Assembly (NCBI GenBank): GCA_035285025.1
Contig: JAYKHY010000039.1
Span: forward strand, 21,018-85,017
DNA length: 64,000 nucleotides
Reading direction: 5' to 3'
Source: Vampirovibrionales bacterium
GTDB lineage: Bacteria > Cyanobacteriota > Vampirovibrionia > Vampirovibrionales > JAJTHC01
Made by a program: the position numbers and the translations under genes. The notes beneath the pieces were generated by a model that was given only the letters and a program-made list of their open reading frames with translations, had not been told where the DNA came from and did no database searches. Shown piece by piece: positions 28,704 through 35,992 of the stretch (positions within the stretch are counted from its first letter, which is position 1; each line of letters opens with the position of its first letter).

Positions 28704-29035
28704 GATACGAATAGCTTAACACTGCAAAACACGGAGTTCTAGCGTTTTTTTTGCGAGTTTCTAGATTTTTTTAGCTTCGCGATTTTAATTGATTACATTA
28801 AACGGATTCAGAAATTAAACAATCGCTGTTTAATGGTGCATTTAAGCCAGTAGCAGCCCAGAGAATCCACGGCCCAGCTTAGCTTTAGCAAATCGTATGG
28901 ATTGGTCGAAAGTTTGTTTAAATAATAGCTATCGTTAGTTTAATCTGTTCAAATCAAGTCTTACAAGGCCCAACCGTCTAGGGCTTACCCGAAAATTGGC
29001 TATTAATCAGGCTTAAACTCGGCTTTAATCCTTTT

Positions 29036-29917
29036 TCAAGACCCCGAATTGCCAGGTGGTATGGGCATTTTAAACTCAGGTAAACGCCCAACGGCATCCA
29101 GATCAAGCTCTGGGCCTTGCACTGGCGTGTAAGCTTGCGCTTGTCGAACCGTTTCGGCCGCCTGTTTATACGCTTCACGTTGGGCACTGCGTGGCATGCC
29201 GTGCATCGCCTCAAACGTTGGCACACCCGACATATCGGCCTTAGGCGATTGTAAAACCGGCTTGCGCTGGCTTAGCTCGGGCTTGGCTTTAAACCCGAAC
29301 CGATCGTATAGTTTACTGGCCCTTACGCTGTATTCCGGCGTTTCGCCAACTATATCTACTCGCTTAACGGCGCTGGGCAACACGGCTTCAAACGCGCTCA
29401 CCAGCGCTTTGCCTACGCCGTTTTGTTCAGAAAAACTCACCAGCCAATTGAGCGAGCTATGGCCAGACGTTCCAGCGTTAGAATCAACCCCCTTTAAATC
29501 TTCGGCCAGATTATCATCAAGCATCGAGTAGAGCTTTTCGCCGCTGGGCAAGGCGCGTTCGATGTGCCCCAAAGCAAGGCCCATTAACTGATGCGACTGA
29601 TCCAACGCCGCAATGACAATCGGCCCCTGCTTCAGCGAGCCATTGGCCAAGGCGTTTAACAAACTTAGCGAGCGCTCGAAGGCTTCCTCGCCCAACTCCA
29701 GATGATTCTCGTGGGATTCACCTGGTTTCACCGGAATCACGGAGGTATTTTTACGAGCCTGCGCCTTAAAACTATCCAGCCCCCGCTGTAAAAACGCGCG
29801 ATCTGAAACACTGGGCCCCAACTGCACCAGCCGAATTTTAGAGGCCTGCGGCGCAGACGCATCGAGTACGGCGGTTGCAATGGGTTTTGCCCCAAAACGG
29901 GTTCGATCAATTTGCAT
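29036..29917 (-). CDS. Hypothetical protein with GNAT-like acetyltransferase core
   Basis: 293 aa. Putative GNAT motif A EQNGVGKALVSAFE and motif B LYDRFGF. The N- and C-terminal extensions are unrecognised. Confidence 0.4.
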   Translation of the reverse strand: MQIDRTRFGAKPIATAVLDASAPQASKIRLVQLGPSVSDRAFLQRGLDSFKAQARKNTSVIPVKPGESHENHLELGEEAFERSLSLLNALANGSLKQGPIVIAALDQSHQLMGLALGHIERALPSGEKLYSMLDDNLAEDLKGVDSNAGTSGHSSLNWLVSFSEQNGVGKALVSAFEAVLPSAVKRVDIVGETPEYSVRASKLYDRFGFKAKPELSQRKPVLQSPKADMSGVPTFEAMHGMPRSAQREAYKQAAETVRQAQAYTPVQGPELDLDAVGRLPEFKMPIPPGNSGS

Positions 29918-31174: not shown

Positions 31175-31360
31175 TTAAATGCCCAAACCGACGCGGCGTT
31201 TATCTTCAACTGGCAGCATGTCGTCAATGGTCTGGTAAACCTGCTTCAGTAACGAGCACACATCGGTGGGCGTTAAAGGCTGATTGTGGTTTTTGACGTA
31301 ACTGGCCACGATGTCTTTGGCAGCAGCTAATTTGACTTCTTTGGAAATACGCTCGTCCAT
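31175..31360 (-). CDS. Small hypothetical protein (61 aa)
   Basis: ORF with GAGAGG about 10 nt upstream of the ATG and no recognised domain. A structured region and a terminator follow on the same strand. Confidence 0.3.
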   Translation of the reverse strand: MDERISKEVKLAAAKDIVASYVKNHNQPLTPTDVCSLLKQVYQTIDDMLPVEDKRRVGLGI

Positions 31361-31613: not shown

Positions 31614-32621
31614 ATGGAATCTTTAATGACCCTCTCCTCCGCGGGCCCTTTGGGCAAAATGACGGATGGCTTTGATTTTCAGAAGTTGGTGAGCCTGAAA
31701 GGCCGCGACTTTTTAACGATTATGGATTTAACCCCCGAAGAAGGCGCAACGCTGATTGGCTTTGCCCGCCAGCTTAAAATGCTCAAGCGCGGCCGCGTAC
31801 CGCACCGTTTTTTAAATGGCAAAAGCGTGGCCATGTACTTCGAGAAACCCAGCAACCGAACCCGCGTAAGCTTTGAGGTTGGCATTTATGATTTGGGTGC
31901 CCACCCGGTTTATTTACGCAAAGAAGAAATCAACCTGGGCGTGCGCGAAACCATCGCCGACACCGCCCGCACCCTCAGCCGCTACGTAGACGCGATCATG
32001 ATCCGCACGTTTAAGCACGCCGACGTCGAAGAACTCGCAGAATGGGCTACCGTGCCGGTTGTTAACGGCCTGACGGATGATCATCACCCGTGCCAGGTGC
32101 TGGCCGATTTGCAAACAATTCACGAGCATTTAGGCAGTTTTAAAGGGCAAAAACTGGTGTTTACCGGCGATGGCTGTAACAACATGAGCCACAGCCTAAT
32201 GGAAGGCGCTGTACTGATGGGCATGGATTTTGCCGTCGCTTGCCCGCCCGGCCACGAGCCCGCGCCCGCCGTGCTGGCCCGCGCCCAAAAAATGGCCGAA
32301 TACACCGGCAGCCGCATCGAGGTAACCAATCAAATGAGCGAGGCGCTCAAAGGCGCCACCGTGCTTTACGCCGATGTTTGGGCCAGCATGGGCCAAGAGG
32401 CCGAAGCCGAAGCGCGCAAAGCCCTGATGATGCCGTATCAAATCAACGCCGAGGCCATGGCGCAAGCCGACCCCAAAGCCATTGTGCTGCACTGCCTGCC
32501 CGCGCACCGCGGCGAAGAAATTACGCACGACGTGCTGGAGCGCTTTGCGCAGGTGATTTTTGACGAAGCCGAAAACCGCCTCCACGCGCAAAAAGCCCTG
32601 CTTGCGGCAGTTATGGCGTAA
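31614..32621 (+). CDS. argF: Ornithine carbamoyltransferase family (OTCase fold)
   Basis: 335 aa. Carbamoyl-phosphate site SNRTR (STRTR-like), HPCQ, DVWASMGQE and HCLPAHRGEE blocks are typical of OTCase rather than ATCase (HPTQ). Confidence 0.7.
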   Translation: MESLMTLSSAGPLGKMTDGFDFQKLVSLKGRDFLTIMDLTPEEGATLIGFARQLKMLKRGRVPHRFLNGKSVAMYFEKPSNRTRVSFEVGIYDLGAHPVYLRKEEINLGVRETIADTARTLSRYVDAIMIRTFKHADVEELAEWATVPVVNGLTDDHHPCQVLADLQTIHEHLGSFKGQKLVFTGDGCNNMSHSLMEGAVLMGMDFAVACPPGHEPAPAVLARAQKMAEYTGSRIEVTNQMSEALKGATVLYADVWASMGQEAEAEARKALMMPYQINAEAMAQADPKAIVLHCLPAHRGEEITHDVLERFAQVIFDEAENRLHAQKALLAAVMA

Positions 32622-32624
32622 ACA

Positions 32625-33662
32625 ATGCCCCTCACAAAATCCTATTTAGATAAAATGGGCGAGCAACTACGCCGTGGCCCAAGCTCGCCCAATTTTGAAG
32701 AGGCCTACGAACAGCTCAAGCTATACCGACAAGCTTTTGCCACCCCGATGACTCGTGTAAACAATCGCGCTAGAGATATTATCAAACAATATAGATTGTC
32801 AAGTACCAATGCACCTGCCATTGTGGCTCAACGGCATAAACGTCTGCAATCTATTGTTTTTAAACTAAATCGTTTTGAAACCACTAACCTAAGCCAGATG
32901 CAGGATATAGGCGGAGTCAGGGTTGTTTTGCCCAATTTGTTTAAAGTACGACTATTTGAACACTACTTCCCTGGGCGGTCGGTGATTGAAATTAAGCGTA
33001 AGAAAGACTACCTTGCAGAATCCAAAAATGATGGGTACAGAAGCCTTCATTTAATGCTGGAGTATCCTAACAAGCTTGAAACTATATATGCTTCCGAAAC
33101 TGTTTCCATTGAGCTCCAAGTAAGAACCAGACTACAGCATTGCTGGGCGACTGCCGTCGAGATGGCGGGCATGATGAACCTACGCTCTTACAAACAGGGC
33201 GATTGGGATGAAGACTGGCAAAAGTTTTTTTTACTCCTCTCGAGATATTTTTATTATAAAGAGCAAGACTTGGAGATGAAGCCACAAGAATTGCAAGCTT
33301 TAAAAGCAATTACGAACGAACTATCAGTTATTGAGAAGTTGCAGGCAACCAGTGCCATTTATTCGAGAGTAGAAGACATTGTAAACTTTAAGAAAGACGT
33401 CCGCTCTATTGCAAAAACGCCAAAATTATTTGTCCTTGAAATTTCTCACGTTAAAAGAAAACTTAACTTTTACCCATTTGAGGAATTAAGCGATGCCCTT
33501 AAAACTCTGAGCATTTTAGAATTTAAGTATCAAAATGTGAATGAAGGACAAGCTATTTTGGCCGATGTCAATGAAATAAAACTCCTGAAGCAGGCCTACC
33601 CAAACTTTTTTATGGATACAAGTGTGGTTGTCAGAGAACTCAAACAAATTTTAAAAAATTGA
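32625..33662 (+). CDS. RelA/SpoT (alarmone synthetase-fold) nucleotidyltransferase domain protein with a cysteine-free C-terminal extension. It is AT-rich and a candidate toxSAS/CapRel-like protein.
   Basis: 345 aa. RelA_SpoT synthetase motifs DIGGVRVV, GYRSLHL and IELQVRT (EIQIRT-like), then a roughly 135-145 aa C-terminal region with no Cys. The gene is visibly far more AT-rich than argF and trmD on either side. It starts 3 nt after the argF stop. Confidence 0.6.
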   Translation: MPLTKSYLDKMGEQLRRGPSSPNFEEAYEQLKLYRQAFATPMTRVNNRARDIIKQYRLSSTNAPAIVAQRHKRLQSIVFKLNRFETTNLSQMQDIGGVRVVLPNLFKVRLFEHYFPGRSVIEIKRKKDYLAESKNDGYRSLHLMLEYPNKLETIYASETVSIELQVRTRLQHCWATAVEMAGMMNLRSYKQGDWDEDWQKFFLLLSRYFYYKEQDLEMKPQELQALKAITNELSVIEKLQATSAIYSRVEDIVNFKKDVRSIAKTPKLFVLEISHVKRKLNFYPFEELSDALKTLSILEFKYQNVNEGQAILADVNEIKLLKQAYPNFFMDTSVVVRELKQILKN

Positions 33663-33674
33663 TAATTAGTCCTT

Positions 33675-34370
33675 ATGCAATTCACTCTTTTATCGTTGTT
33701 CCCCGAGGTCATCTGGCCGTATTTAAACGCAAGTATTCTGGGGCGCGGCCAACAAGCCGGATTACTGACGGTTAACGTCGTTAATCCACGCACGTTTGCA
33801 GACCCGCCCCATTTTAAAGTCGATAACGCGCCCTACGGCGGCGGCGACGGCATGGTGCTCTCTTGCGCGCCGTGGCATAAGGCGGTTGCCAGTTTGCTCC
33901 CACCAGACGCCTCGTGTTTTGGCGACGATACACTCATTTTACTGACCAATCCGGCGGGCGAGCTATACACGCAGGCGCACGCGCGGCGTTACGCCCATCA
34001 AGCCAAGCATCTCATTTTGCTGTGCGGCCATTACGAAGGCTTTGATGAACGCCTGAAGCCGGTGCTGGCAGCTTACGGCGCGCCAGTGCTTGAGCTTAGC
34101 GTGGGCGAATACGTCCTGACCGGGGGCGAACTACCCGCTTTAAGCATAGTTGATTCGGTTGCCAGGCTGGTGCCGGGCGTGGTTCAGAAAGCTGGCTCGG
34201 TTGAGAACGATTCGTTTGGCGAATCCGGCCTGCTGGATTACCCGTGTTACACGCGCCCAGCCACATACGAGGGCTTACCTGTGCCCGAAGTGTTACTGTC
34301 GGGCAATCATTCGGCCATTGCGCAATGGCGCTTGCAGCAATCCAATGCGCGCTCCCAAAACAGACTTTAG
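33675..34370 (+). CDS. trmD: tRNA (guanine37-N1)-methyltransferase
   Basis: 231 aa. TrmD blocks: LSLFPEV, NAPYGGGDGMVL, CGHYEGFDERL and LTGGELPALSIVDSVARLVPGV. Confidence 0.85.
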   Translation: MQFTLLSLFPEVIWPYLNASILGRGQQAGLLTVNVVNPRTFADPPHFKVDNAPYGGGDGMVLSCAPWHKAVASLLPPDASCFGDDTLILLTNPAGELYTQAHARRYAHQAKHLILLCGHYEGFDERLKPVLAAYGAPVLELSVGEYVLTGGELPALSIVDSVARLVPGVVQKAGSVENDSFGESGLLDYPCYTRPATYEGLPVPEVLLSGNHSAIAQWRLQQSNARSQNRL

Positions 34371-34384
34371 GCAGCTAAACAGGC

Positions 34385-35425
34385 CTATAGCCAGCGCCGC
34401 CGCTTGAACAACAGCAACATGCTCAGGGCCAGCGCCAGCATCACGCCCAGAATCATCCAAAAGCCAAACGGGTGATTCAGCAGCGGCATGTGCTTAAAAT
34501 TCATGCCATATAAACCCGTCACCACGTTCAAGGGGAGTAGCATTGTAGTAAGCATCGTTAAAAACAGCACAATCTGGTTGACTTTGGTGCCGTTAAGCGA
34601 CAGCTGAATCGTAAGCGCCTCGCGCAGGTTTTGTTGATACTGATCCGACAACTCGACCATCCGCAGCAGGTGATCGTAAACATCTTTAAAATAGCGCGCC
34701 TGTTGCTCGTCAATAAACTCCAGGCTGGCGTGGCTTAGTTGGTAAAACACCTGCTGGTTTCGCACCGAAATGCGCCGCAAGAGCTGGAGCTGACGCGTCA
34801 TTTTCAAGTACGCGGCCGCTGCGTGGCGCTTCAGGTTACTGGCAAATAACTGCTGTTGCAGCCCGTCCAGCCGATCTTCAAAATAATCTAGTACGGGCGC
34901 TTGTAAGTCCACAAATCGATCCAGAATCTCGTAGGCTAACGTGGCCACGCCCTGCCGAATTTGACTATTACGGTTAGCGACGTGCTTGAGGGTTACATTT
35001 ACGGCCTCGGCGGGGTGCCGATGATGGGTGACTAAAAACCGCTCGCCAATGTAGCAGTTAAGTTGTACCACCTCGAGCTTTTGGGGTACCACGCCGTCGG
35101 CCTCGTCGGTGTTAGGCTCTGGGCCCGCAAAAGGCTCGTCTAGCATTTGCTCGGCCCTGCGCAAGGCTTTAACCAGCACAAAATGGTACGCTTCGAATGT
35201 TTCGACCTTAGGGAGTTGGCGCGGGCTCAGGCAGTCTTCAAGGGTTAGCGGGTCTAACTCAAGCGCTTCGCCAATGGTCTGAAGTTCGGCAGGGTCATCG
35301 GTTTGGCAATCGATCCAAAGGTGCGTATGCGCGTCGGCTAAAAGGGCAGGCAGCGCCGCTAGCCCCGCAGGCGTGCTGTAGGTTTGCGTTTGGGTGTTAT
35401 ACGCGTGAATTTGGAGCAAGAACAA
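34385..35425 (-). CDS. corA: Magnesium/cobalt transporter CorA
   Basis: 346 aa. Two C-terminal TM helices carry the signature YGMNF (GMN motif). The first start in the stop-to-stop frame is TTG, so the true start is uncertain. Confidence 0.85.
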   Translation of the reverse strand: MFLLQIHAYNTQTQTYSTPAGLAALPALLADAHTHLWIDCQTDDPAELQTIGEALELDPLTLEDCLSPRQLPKVETFEAYHFVLVKALRRAEQMLDEPFAGPEPNTDEADGVVPQKLEVVQLNCYIGERFLVTHHRHPAEAVNVTLKHVANRNSQIRQGVATLAYEILDRFVDLQAPVLDYFEDRLDGLQQQLFASNLKRHAAAAYLKMTRQLQLLRRISVRNQQVFYQLSHASLEFIDEQQARYFKDVYDHLLRMVELSDQYQQNLREALTIQLSLNGTKVNQIVLFLTMLTTMLLPLNVVTGLYGMNFKHMPLLNHPFGFWMILGVMLALALSMLLLFKRRRWL

Positions 35426-35992
35426 TTATCTTTCAGAAGATTTACCCATAATTTTTTGACACGAATCATTCACGTGAAGATTCTCTAGTTTCCATTGAAA
35501 GTCTATCCACTGGAAAACCAATTCTATACCATCAAGCTTTGCTTTCATTTGATTAAGTGAAGTAAAAGAAAGCCGCTTTGCCATAACTACAAAGTCGGGA
35601 TGCTTTTGGGTAGTGCTTTCTTTTGTGTTTTGAGAAGAGAGCTGGTTTGAGTGTTCTCTTATCGCAAATTGAAGTCCTTCAGGGCTAACATAAGAATCAA
35701 CAAGTGAATTTAACATATTTTGCATTAAAGGCATGAACATTAATGCAAAAGGATTATCTTTGATGTCTGGATCGTTGTTATAACTTTCCATAATACAATT
35801 TGTCATCTTTGACTTTAAAGATTTTCTAATTTTTTCAAAATTAATGCGTTCATCGTCAGCGCTCAACTTTTGTTGATAAATGTCTTGGAACAGAAAATAA
35901 ACTGATGTATAAGCATGACCAAAATAAAGGCCTATCAAAATAAAACCAATAAGGAACAAGTTTAATGGTTTGAAGATGGCTTTTACTTTCAT
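35426..35992 (-). CDS. AT-rich hypothetical membrane-anchored protein
   Basis: 188 aa with an N-terminal TM helix (LNLFLIGFILIGLYFGHAY), AAGGG about 10 nt upstream, and no recognised domain. The gene is strikingly AT-rich. Its stop codon directly abuts the corA start. Confidence 0.4.
   Translation of the reverse strand: MKVKAIFKPLNLFLIGFILIGLYFGHAYTSVYFLFQDIYQQKLSADDERINFEKIRKSLKSKMTNCIMESYNNDPDIKDNPFALMFMPLMQNMLNSLVDSYVSPEGLQFAIREHSNQLSSQNTKESTTQKHPDFVVMAKRLSFTSLNQMKAKLDGIELVFQWIDFQWKLENLHVNDSCQKIMGKSSER

Follow-up and report, generated by a model that had tools for sequence, protein, structure and literature searches.

A gene with an alarmone-synthetase domain lies between argF and trmD in a Vampirovibrionales bacterium, and the question that this locus raises is what such a gene encodes and how it came to stand between two core genes. 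The gene (32625..33662, forward strand) is part of a 64,000-nucleotide stretch of contig JAYKHY010000039.1 (assembly GCA_035285025.1), referred to below as the window. An initial annotation, made from the sequence alone, had proposed a toxic small alarmone synthetase (toxSAS) fused to a sensor, as in CapRel. The computational analysis described here indicates that the gene product quite probably belongs to the CapRel subfamily as a toxin-antitoxin fused into one polypeptide, its gene having been horizontally acquired by this Vampirovibrionales bacterium.

Assignment of the protein to the fused CapRel subfamily

The open reading frame (ORF) starts with an ATG at 32625, ends with a TGA at 33660-33662 and encodes 345 amino acids (aa). 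These coordinates, and the synthetase motifs DIGGVRVV, GYRSLHL and IELQVRT, were exactly as first annotated. An automatic gene call on a 1,525-bp contig from run SRR13425446 uses the downstream ATG of M11 (P0001, 335 aa). The ATG at 32625 is the better start, because the family homologues and CapRelSJ46 (introduced below) align from residue 4 and M1 is almost invariant in the family alignment. The same contig, which was possibly built from the same reads as the window, is 100% identical to it over both gene junctions; an assembly chimera was rejected on this ground, and the gene arrangement is therefore unlikely to be an artefact.

We used Pfam, NCBIfam and structure databases to place the protein. 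The Pfam search gave a single domain, RelA_SpoT (PF04607; aa 69-177, E value 1.3e-18, 67.7 bits against a cutoff of 27), and no HD hydrolase, TGS or ACT domain. A long Rel/SpoT enzyme was rejected since these domains are absent, and TIGR00691, the model for long RelA/SpoT homologues (RSH), gave 32 bits where 499 are required. With the RelQ/YjbM equivalog of NCBIfam (GTP diphosphokinase YjbM) the score was 63.7 bits; as this is far under the cutoff of 320, the protein is not a housekeeping small alarmone synthetase (SAS) by NCBIfam. Housekeeping RelQ/RelP was rejected both for this score and for its architecture, the protein being larger than these enzymes (345 aa against ~210-240 aa). All of these points agree with the initial annotation, which had set the protein apart from housekeeping enzymes of either kind.

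The best sequence matches among solved structures were both entries of CapRelSJ46 (7ZTB and 9ERV), the type fused CapRel toxSAS toxin-antitoxin, from Salmonella phage SJ46 and E. coli prophages. The alignment runs end to end (aa 4-337 with 16-364, E 9e-24). RelQ/RelP-type structures were matched by the single sequence over the catalytic core only (aa ~45-180; best SAS 1.4e-15, RelQ/YjbM E 1e-13 to 1e-15), and long RSH structures no better than 1e-11. When the search was repeated with a profile of family alignment A1, which holds the query and 119 database homologues (120 sequences), CapRelSJ46 matched at E 4.7e-78 (266 bits, profile positions 6-343) and the best SAS at 1.5e-23, again over the core only. 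BLASTP against the actual SJ46 protein, taken from the phage record, gave 27% identity over the full length (E 8e-28), and phage SJ46 was the best full-length match among 50,697 phage records. The PADLOC profile PDC-S33 was matched at E 9.9e-82 (273 bits, aa 4-343 with profile positions 9-342 of 349). The placement in a subfamily is based on these pairwise and profile scores. The nearest protein in a collection of 5.8 billion is at most 42% identical, and databases label the homologues "putative GTP pyrophosphokinase".

Structure models were compared with the same database of solved structures. The full-length AlphaFold2 model has a predicted local distance difference test (pLDDT) score of 87.5 and a predicted template modelling (pTM) score of 0.82. 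Its top three PDB matches were CapRelSJ46 chains (E 6e-20 to 5e-19 over ~360 columns, template modelling (TM) scores 0.62-0.66); SAS structures came next (E 1e-9, ~200 columns), and RelQ/RelP structures superpose on the aa 1-195 part only. For aa 196-345 modelled alone (alignment A2; pLDDT 82), a comparison with 350,542 PDB chains found only three CapRelSJ46 chains below E 0.001 (E 4-7e-6, TM 0.57-0.63 on the query), and the first non-CapRel match appeared at E 0.4. The predicted C-terminal fold matches the published pseudo-zinc-finger domain (pZFD) and anchors of CapRel (PMC9712102), as the initial annotation had supposed of this region. That annotation had also described a Cys-free extension of 135-145 aa. 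The C-terminal ~170 aa are indeed Cys-free, since the protein has a single cysteine, C173; the length was underestimated, the extension being ~150 aa (aa 196-345) by the model.

The predicted features of the gene are the following.

32625..33662, forward strand: complete predicted fused CapRel-type toxSAS gene, stop included (ORF; PDC-S33 match; CapRelSJ46 the best PDB match by sequence and fold)
32625..33209, forward strand: N-terminal toxSYNTH (toxin) domain, aa 1-195 (Pfam; SAS alpha/beta core in the AlphaFold2 model)
32829-33155, forward strand: Pfam RelA_SpoT core, aa 69-177 (Pfam E 1.3e-18)
32832..32834, forward strand: R70, equivalent of the ATP(adenine)-coordinating R79 of CapRelSJ46 (alignments)
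32919..32921, forward strand: R99, in DIGGVR, equivalent of the ATP-coordinating R116 of CapRelSJ46 (alignments)
33036..33038, forward strand: Y138, codon tac, equivalent of the G-loop Y155 of CapRelSJ46 (alignments)
33210..33398, forward strand: helical linker or "anchor", aa 196-258 (helices 196-213, 220-232 and 235-258), joining toxin and sensor (AlphaFold2; matches alpha7-alpha9 of CapRelSJ46)
33399..33596, forward strand: Cys-free pZFD antitoxin/sensor core, aa 259-324 (AlphaFold2 topology; domain-only PDB match)
33597..33608, forward strand: hinge/neutralisation motif Y325-P-N-F328, codons tac cca aac ttt (counterpart of Y352-x-x-Y355 of CapRelSJ46)
33609..33659, forward strand: C-terminal helical extension, helix aa 333-344, predicted to pack back onto the anchor helices (AlphaFold2; description of CapRelSJ46)

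In the AlphaFold2 model the toxSYNTH core strands are E66-71, E96-102, E122-128, E141-148 and E159-168. The pZFD has strands at 268-274, 279-285 and 308-314; helix 288-303 lies between the last two of these, and helix 315-324 comes after the third. Between two confident helices (315-324 and 333-344), hinge residues 326-328 have a pLDDT below 50, as would be expected if this part of the model were a conformational switch.

Residues were mapped in the numbering of PMC9712102, which is that of chain 7ZTB_A. In CapRelSJ46, R79 and R116 coordinate the donor ATP, Y155 is a G-loop residue whose replacement (Y155A) abolishes defence, and the hinge is a conserved YXXY neutralisation motif (PMC9712102). 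The equivalents R70, R99 and Y138 are invariant in 120 of 120 homologues. Conserved besides these are A68, two residues upstream of R70, and L312, A324, Y325, P326 and N327, the A324-Y325-P326-N327 block being invariant across the family. The autoinhibition interface residues A77, V338, L339, A351 and Y352 of CapRelSJ46 correspond to A68, I311, L312, A324 and Y325, respectively. All 27 family-invariant positions are retained, catalytic and ATP-binding residues included. The hinge sits in the expected place but reads YPNF, not YxxY; the first tyrosine is kept, and the phenylalanine at position 328 retains the aromatic ring. Because this position is Tyr in 106 and Phe in 14 (12%) of the 120 homologues, F328 is a recurrent natural variant. 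Mean column conservation is lowest at aa 251-310 (0.39), compared to 0.67 in the catalytic core and 0.74 in the hinge region. The sensor core is thus least conserved and the core and hinge most, which is the pattern published for CapRel (PMC9712102).

Membership of the fused CapRel subfamily of toxSAS is therefore supported by three independent lines, namely sequence, fold and residues, and the architecture first proposed for the protein is borne out. A search of 1.84 billion cluster representatives (50% identity) with a profile of the C-terminal domain alone matched 3,217 clusters, of which 2,331 reached E <= 1e-10. In most of the top matches the protein is ~350 aa long and the domain falls at its residues ~195-350, the layout of a fused protein, and since thousands of clusters carry this domain the fused CapRel family is very large. 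A minority of the matches are 145-215 aa long and may be stand-alone antitoxins or gene fragments.

Probable acquisition of the gene at the argF-trmD locus

The gene stands between two housekeeping genes of the same orientation.

31614..32621, forward strand: argF (ornithine carbamoyltransferase), upstream gene of the apparent operon (NCBIfam E 1e-124)
33675..34370, forward strand: trmD (tRNA m1G37 methyltransferase), downstream gene of the apparent operon (NCBIfam E 1e-74)

The argF stop codon (TAA, 32619-32621) is followed by "aca" and then by the ATG at 32625, confirming the 3-nt spacer read earlier; 12 nt separate the TGA from the trmD ATG at 33675. The spacing is most simply read as a sign that the gene is co-transcribed with argF and trmD. 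Promoter- or terminator-like signals around the gene did not exceed shuffled expectation, and no terminator-like site was found between the genes. As regards a separate antitoxin on either strand, the 3- and 12-nt spacers leave no room for one, the antisense ORFs have no family match, and a search for tandem repeats and Rfam matches found none; this candidate was rejected, in keeping with the earlier remark that no antitoxin ORF was evident. One ORF holds both predicted parts, toxin and antitoxin, and no antitoxin gene lies next to it. trmD is usually found within an rpsP-rimM-trmD-rplS cluster. That the gene of a tRNA-modifying enzyme begins 12 nt after that of a predicted tRNA-pyrophosphorylating toxin is probably a coincidence.

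The initial annotation had remarked on the AT-richness of the gene and, above all, of its 3' half, and had taken this as a sign of horizontal acquisition. The gene has a G+C content (GC) of 0.401 and a third-position value (GC3) of 0.408, compared to means of 0.540 +/- 0.047 and 0.594 +/- 0.069 for the 49 ORFs of the window, which places its GC ~3 standard deviations below the window gene mean. The flanking genes have GC 0.566 (argF) and 0.572 (trmD). From 5' to 3' the GC of the gene is 0.46, 0.42, 0.40 and 0.33 (last 290 nt), the pZFD sensor part being lowest. If toxin and sensor parts had different histories, this could explain the fall along the gene.

Similar arrangements and compositions were observed for homologues elsewhere. 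The two nearest (41% and 39% identity) lie directly downstream of, and co-oriented with, ogt and recG in housekeeping surroundings, and a further one follows serS.

L027 8001-9059: homologue after ogt, 112-nt gap, co-oriented
L029 2867-3928: homologue after recG, 64-nt gap, co-oriented
L113 10001-11038: homologue after serS, 31-nt gap, co-oriented

The two nearest homologues have GC 0.345 and 0.352 against 0.43 and ~0.45 in their own flanks. The fall towards the 3' end recurs in the nearest (L027), whose last 300 nt have GC 0.267 against 0.345 for the whole gene, but is hardly seen in the second nearest (0.337 against 0.352). Mobile-element genes were not visible near the ogt-, recG- and serS-linked homologues. 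These arrangements mirror the argF one, and in this small sample they suggest that read-through expression may be common in the clade. Other homologues have an IS1595 transposase as neighbour or are plasmid-borne, in Nostoc, Psychrobacter, Acinetobacter and E. coli; in a plasmid collection, 87 records have a match that spans 80% or more of the query. The homologues behave as a mobile single-gene cassette. The foreign composition of the gene, the AT-skewed homologues and the presence of homologues on plasmids and in phage SJ46 fit horizontal acquisition, as first suggested.

One of the plasmid homologues deserves mention in its own right. Plasmid6 of Nostoc commune HK-02 (L111; AP018332.1 12744-13787), a 35-kb plasmid, carries a full-length homologue (33% identity, 99% coverage) labelled "hypothetical protein"; a PilT/PIN-type gene and an integrase lie close by. 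A further fused CapRel has probably gone unannotated here.

We compared the locus with those of related genomes. ArgF is 89% identical at the protein level (argF 82% at the nucleotide level) to that of a Vampirovibrionales metagenome-assembled genome, JAYKJM01 (L001), and 60-68% identical to those of Vampirovibrio chlorellavorus and other members of the order. The homology with L001 consists of a small upstream ORF (window 31175..31360) and argF (L001 3388-4395, window 31614-32621). It stops exactly at the argF stop codon (L001 4395, window 32621), beyond which the L001 sequence matches nothing in the 64-kb window. Because the homology with the nearest relative stops at this point, the CapRel-type gene lies at a synteny breakpoint. 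In 25 Vampirovibrionales relatives, the 6 kb after argF contain neither trmD nor a CapRel-like gene (the rest of those genomes was not searched). This is the opposite of a housekeeping SAS conserved between argF and trmD, and it bears out the suspicion that the gene is no fixed part of the locus. Bracketing repeats, insertion scars, tRNA genes, integrase genes, tandem repeats and Rfam families were looked for around the gene, and nothing beyond chance was found.

Proposed function and competing explanations

By analogy with its characterised relatives, the most likely activity of the protein is pyrophosphorylation of tRNA, set off by the binding of a phage trigger to the variable sensor domain. 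The mechanism is drawn from CapRelSJ46 and CapRelEbc (PMC9712102, PMC11578894, PMC13423816) and from FaRel2/ATfaRel2 (PMC11782079). At rest the hinge motif would be tucked, between R70 and R99, into the ATP-donor pocket, where it would hold the enzyme inactive. Once infection is under way, a phage protein just synthesised, or a complex of phage and host proteins, would bind the variable sensor and keep it from the active site. The freed enzyme would then move pyrophosphate from ATP to the 3' CCA ends of tRNA, so that translation would be blocked and the infection aborted. As the spacing suggests, expression would come from argF by read-through, possibly with translational coupling, and this would give the constant low level that a sensor needs.

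The choice of substrate follows from the type of neutralisation. Blocking of the donor site by a pZFD with YXXY, in cis or in trans, is reported to be the hallmark of tRNA-targeting toxSAS, while in the (pp)pApp-producing toxSAS neutralisation is by Tis1-like domains and at the acceptor site (PMC11782079). Given this rule and the family membership of the protein, we infer that its substrate is tRNA and not a nucleotide. Among the known CapRel triggers are a major capsid protein, a small protein that is unrelated and non-capsid (PMC11578894) and a complex of a phage protein with FtsZ (PMC13423816). The sensor domain is of CapRel type, as the initial annotation proposed, but the capsid sensing that it mentioned is a property of one homologue and is not to be assumed here, others sensing non-capsid triggers. 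The three fused CapRels that have been put to experimental test all protect against phages (PMC9712102). The PDC families of PADLOC were nominated since members are embedded in BREX, DISARM, type I restriction-modification or Hma systems (bioRxiv 10.1101/2024.01.29.577857). The PDC-S33 match is therefore contextual evidence suggestive of a defence role and independent of the CapRel literature, PDC-S33 being a candidate family.

Several observations weigh against a horizontally acquired, phage-sensing CapRel. Toxicity, tRNA pyrophosphorylation, autoinhibition and phage protection are carried over by analogy from homologues only 27% identical. A single-sequence PDB search with the C-terminal 146 aa gave nothing significant (best SJ46, E 0.37, in the hinge region only), so this domain is placed only via the family profile and the structure model; as the sensor core is without significant similarity to that of SJ46, the trigger is not predictable here. 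The hinge reads YPNF, the equivalent of Y355 being F328, while Y355A de-represses CapRelSJ46 and makes it constitutively toxic (PMC9712102). The equivalent of A341 is D314 (Ser in most homologues), and A341K de-represses CapRelSJ46. The gene lies outside any recognisable defence island or prophage, and neither a promoter of its own nor insertion scars were found. A relative with an empty argF-trmD junction was not found among the 25 relatives either. A metagenome scan with TrmD for empty-site relatives returned only proteins at most 49% identical, too distant for synteny. Of the locus comparison foreseen in the initial annotation, the absence of the gene after argF in relatives was thus obtained and the empty site was not, and insertion is deduced from composition and the synteny breakpoint instead.

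One possibility is that the protein is a true fused CapRel toxin-antitoxin that acts as a selfish or stress module, or responds to a non-phage cue, and gives no phage protection in this host. It would account for a gene that is solitary among housekeeping genes, like several of its homologues, and outside any defence island or prophage, and PDC-S33, which the gene matches, is a candidate family. Host inputs are possible, given that activation of CapRelEbc needs the host factor FtsZ (PMC13423816). On the other hand, the record of the experimentally tested fused CapRels, every one of which is protective, speaks against it, and the hypervariability of the sensor is as expected of a host-parasite interface. 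A classical addiction module moreover relies on the differential stability of its two parts, on which a fused polypeptide presumably cannot draw. We consider this explanation unlikely.

Another possibility is that, in a predatory bacterium, CapRel has become an integral part of the argF-trmD operon, where it would sense a host factor, a host-phage complex or the state of arginine/tRNA metabolism, or that it exemplifies a scar-less seeding of single genes into such operons. Both variants together appear very unlikely to us.

It could also be speculated that the gene is an inactive remnant, namely an acquired CapRel gene in which autoinhibition or catalysis has been lost and which the host tolerates because it is dead or unexpressed. 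The departures from the SJ46 interface (Y355 to F328, A341 to D314 and V338 to I311) and the lack of both a promoter of its own and a Shine-Dalgarno sequence are in line with such decay. The frame, however, is intact and full length, 27 of 27 family-invariant positions are kept, both domains are modelled confidently and an identical copy exists in a second assembly; Phe328, shared with 14 of 120 homologues, is a natural variant rather than a lesion. A remnant is accordingly highly improbable.

Finally, a non-toxic housekeeping SAS (RelQ/RelP/RelV-like) that makes (p)ppGpp and whose C-terminal domain is a metabolic regulator, possibly linked to arginine or tRNA, would suit the genuine RelA_SpoT domain, the weaker but real similarity to RelQ/YjbM (E 1e-13 to 1e-15), the co-directional placement in an operon between core genes 3 and 12 nt away and the database name of the homologues, but we give it hardly any credence in view of the RelQ equivalog score (63.7 bits against 320), the SAS structures that cover the core only where CapRel aligns from end to end, the C-terminal domain with its hinge motif and the fold of a CapRel antitoxin, the outlying composition, the absence of such a gene after argF in relatives and the neighbours of the homologues, which are unrelated in every genome examined and so leave no conserved metabolic linkage.

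Neighbouring genes and relation to known systems

The neighbouring 20 kb are housekeeping, with genes for ClpB, a glycosyltransferase, a PDZ protein, CorA, an amino-acid permease and alanine racemase. Three further features of the neighbourhood are listed.

34385..35425, reverse strand: corA, convergent with trmD
35426..35992, reverse strand: DUF2939 gene (Pfam E 9e-12), product of 188 aa with a hydrophobic helix at the N-terminus, PADLOC candidate PDC-S55 (E 1.3e-16)
29036..29917, reverse strand: ORF of 293 aa, GC 0.543 (host-like), no Pfam or PADLOC match

The DUF2939/PDC-S55 gene (GC 0.326, GC3 0.307) is the sole other compositional outlier among the 49 ORFs. It too is wedged between housekeeping genes, the amino-acid permease gene upstream and corA abutting it downstream. 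Two AT-rich candidate defence genes hence lie within ~3.4 kb, 1.7 kb apart, with trmD and corA between them. The 293-aa ORF is flanked by an AT-rich intergenic stretch (28750-29050, GC 0.38).

Compared to CapRelSJ46, the protein shares one ORF with toxSYNTH, anchor helices, Cys-free pZFD and C-terminal helix (here as modelled), the end-to-end alignment, the fold of the whole and of the C-terminal domain, the equivalents of R79, R116 and Y155, the A-Y-P-N block and a variable sensor core. It is 28 aa shorter; the SJ46 insertion PSLDGGATNN after the first core helix is absent and the pZFD beta-hairpin is shorter. The hinge is YPNF where SJ46 has YPNY, and Asp takes the place of A341. The sensor core is without detectable sequence similarity, and the trigger is presumably different. 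The gene is chromosomal and argF/trmD-operonic in a Vampirovibrionales host, whereas that of CapRelSJ46 is prophage-borne with its own promoter in an enterobacterium.

By its full-length profile match the gene is also a member of PDC-S33, a phage-defence candidate of PADLOC-DB v2. The nominated members are embedded in known defence systems, whereas the gene described here is in none. A literature search on the name PDC-S33 found no paper. The match suggests that PDC-S33 corresponds to the fused CapRel family.

The bicistronic toxSAS (PhRel/ATphRel of mycobacteriophage Phrann, unfused CapRel/ATcapRel and FaRel2/ATfaRel2) are of the same toxin class, and in these a YXXY-bearing pZFD reportedly blocks the ATP-donor site, the principle proposed here too (PMC11782079, PMC9712102). 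In contrast, toxin and antitoxin are one polypeptide here and there is no second gene. Proteins of the PhRel, unfused CapRel and FaRel2 systems were not among the significant sequence matches to solved structures. RelQ and RelP (YjbM/YwaC; PDB 5DEC, 6EWZ, 6FGK) share the synthetase core fold and the catalytic motifs. They are single-domain proteins, however, while the present one has an extra 150-aa domain, and the similarity is limited to the core. RelQ and RelP make (p)ppGpp, and RelQ, the sole one tested, does not bind tRNA (PMC11782079).

The fused form is described as predominating within CapRel, the most widely distributed toxSAS subfamily, Cyanobacteria included (PMC9712102), and as this was already known the finding is less surprising than first rated. 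Current understanding of CapRel action is unchanged by it. Should CapRel turn out to be functionally integrated into the operon, a tRNA-pyrophosphorylating toxin would be coupled to a tRNA-modifying enzyme encoded 12 nt downstream. Should single-gene seeding be the case, the CapRel-type gene, the DUF2939/PDC-S55 gene and the ogt-, recG- and serS-linked homologues may reveal a scar-less spread of AT-rich defence genes into housekeeping operons.

As a probable fused toxin-antitoxin of horizontal origin, the gene adds a divergent CapRel to the known catalogue, at most 42% identical to anything in the collection searched and 27% identical to a characterised protein. The likely equivalence of PDC-S33 and fused CapRel is a useful clean-up of annotation, and the natural Y-to-F variant of the hinge offers a ready-made test of what the autoinhibitory motif requires. 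The Vampirovibrionales, which are related to cyanobacteria and do not photosynthesise, include predators of algae, and little is known of their phages and immune systems. In this bacterium a gene of defence type is placed in a housekeeping operon, outside any defence island, and discovery based on gene neighbourhood would miss such genes.

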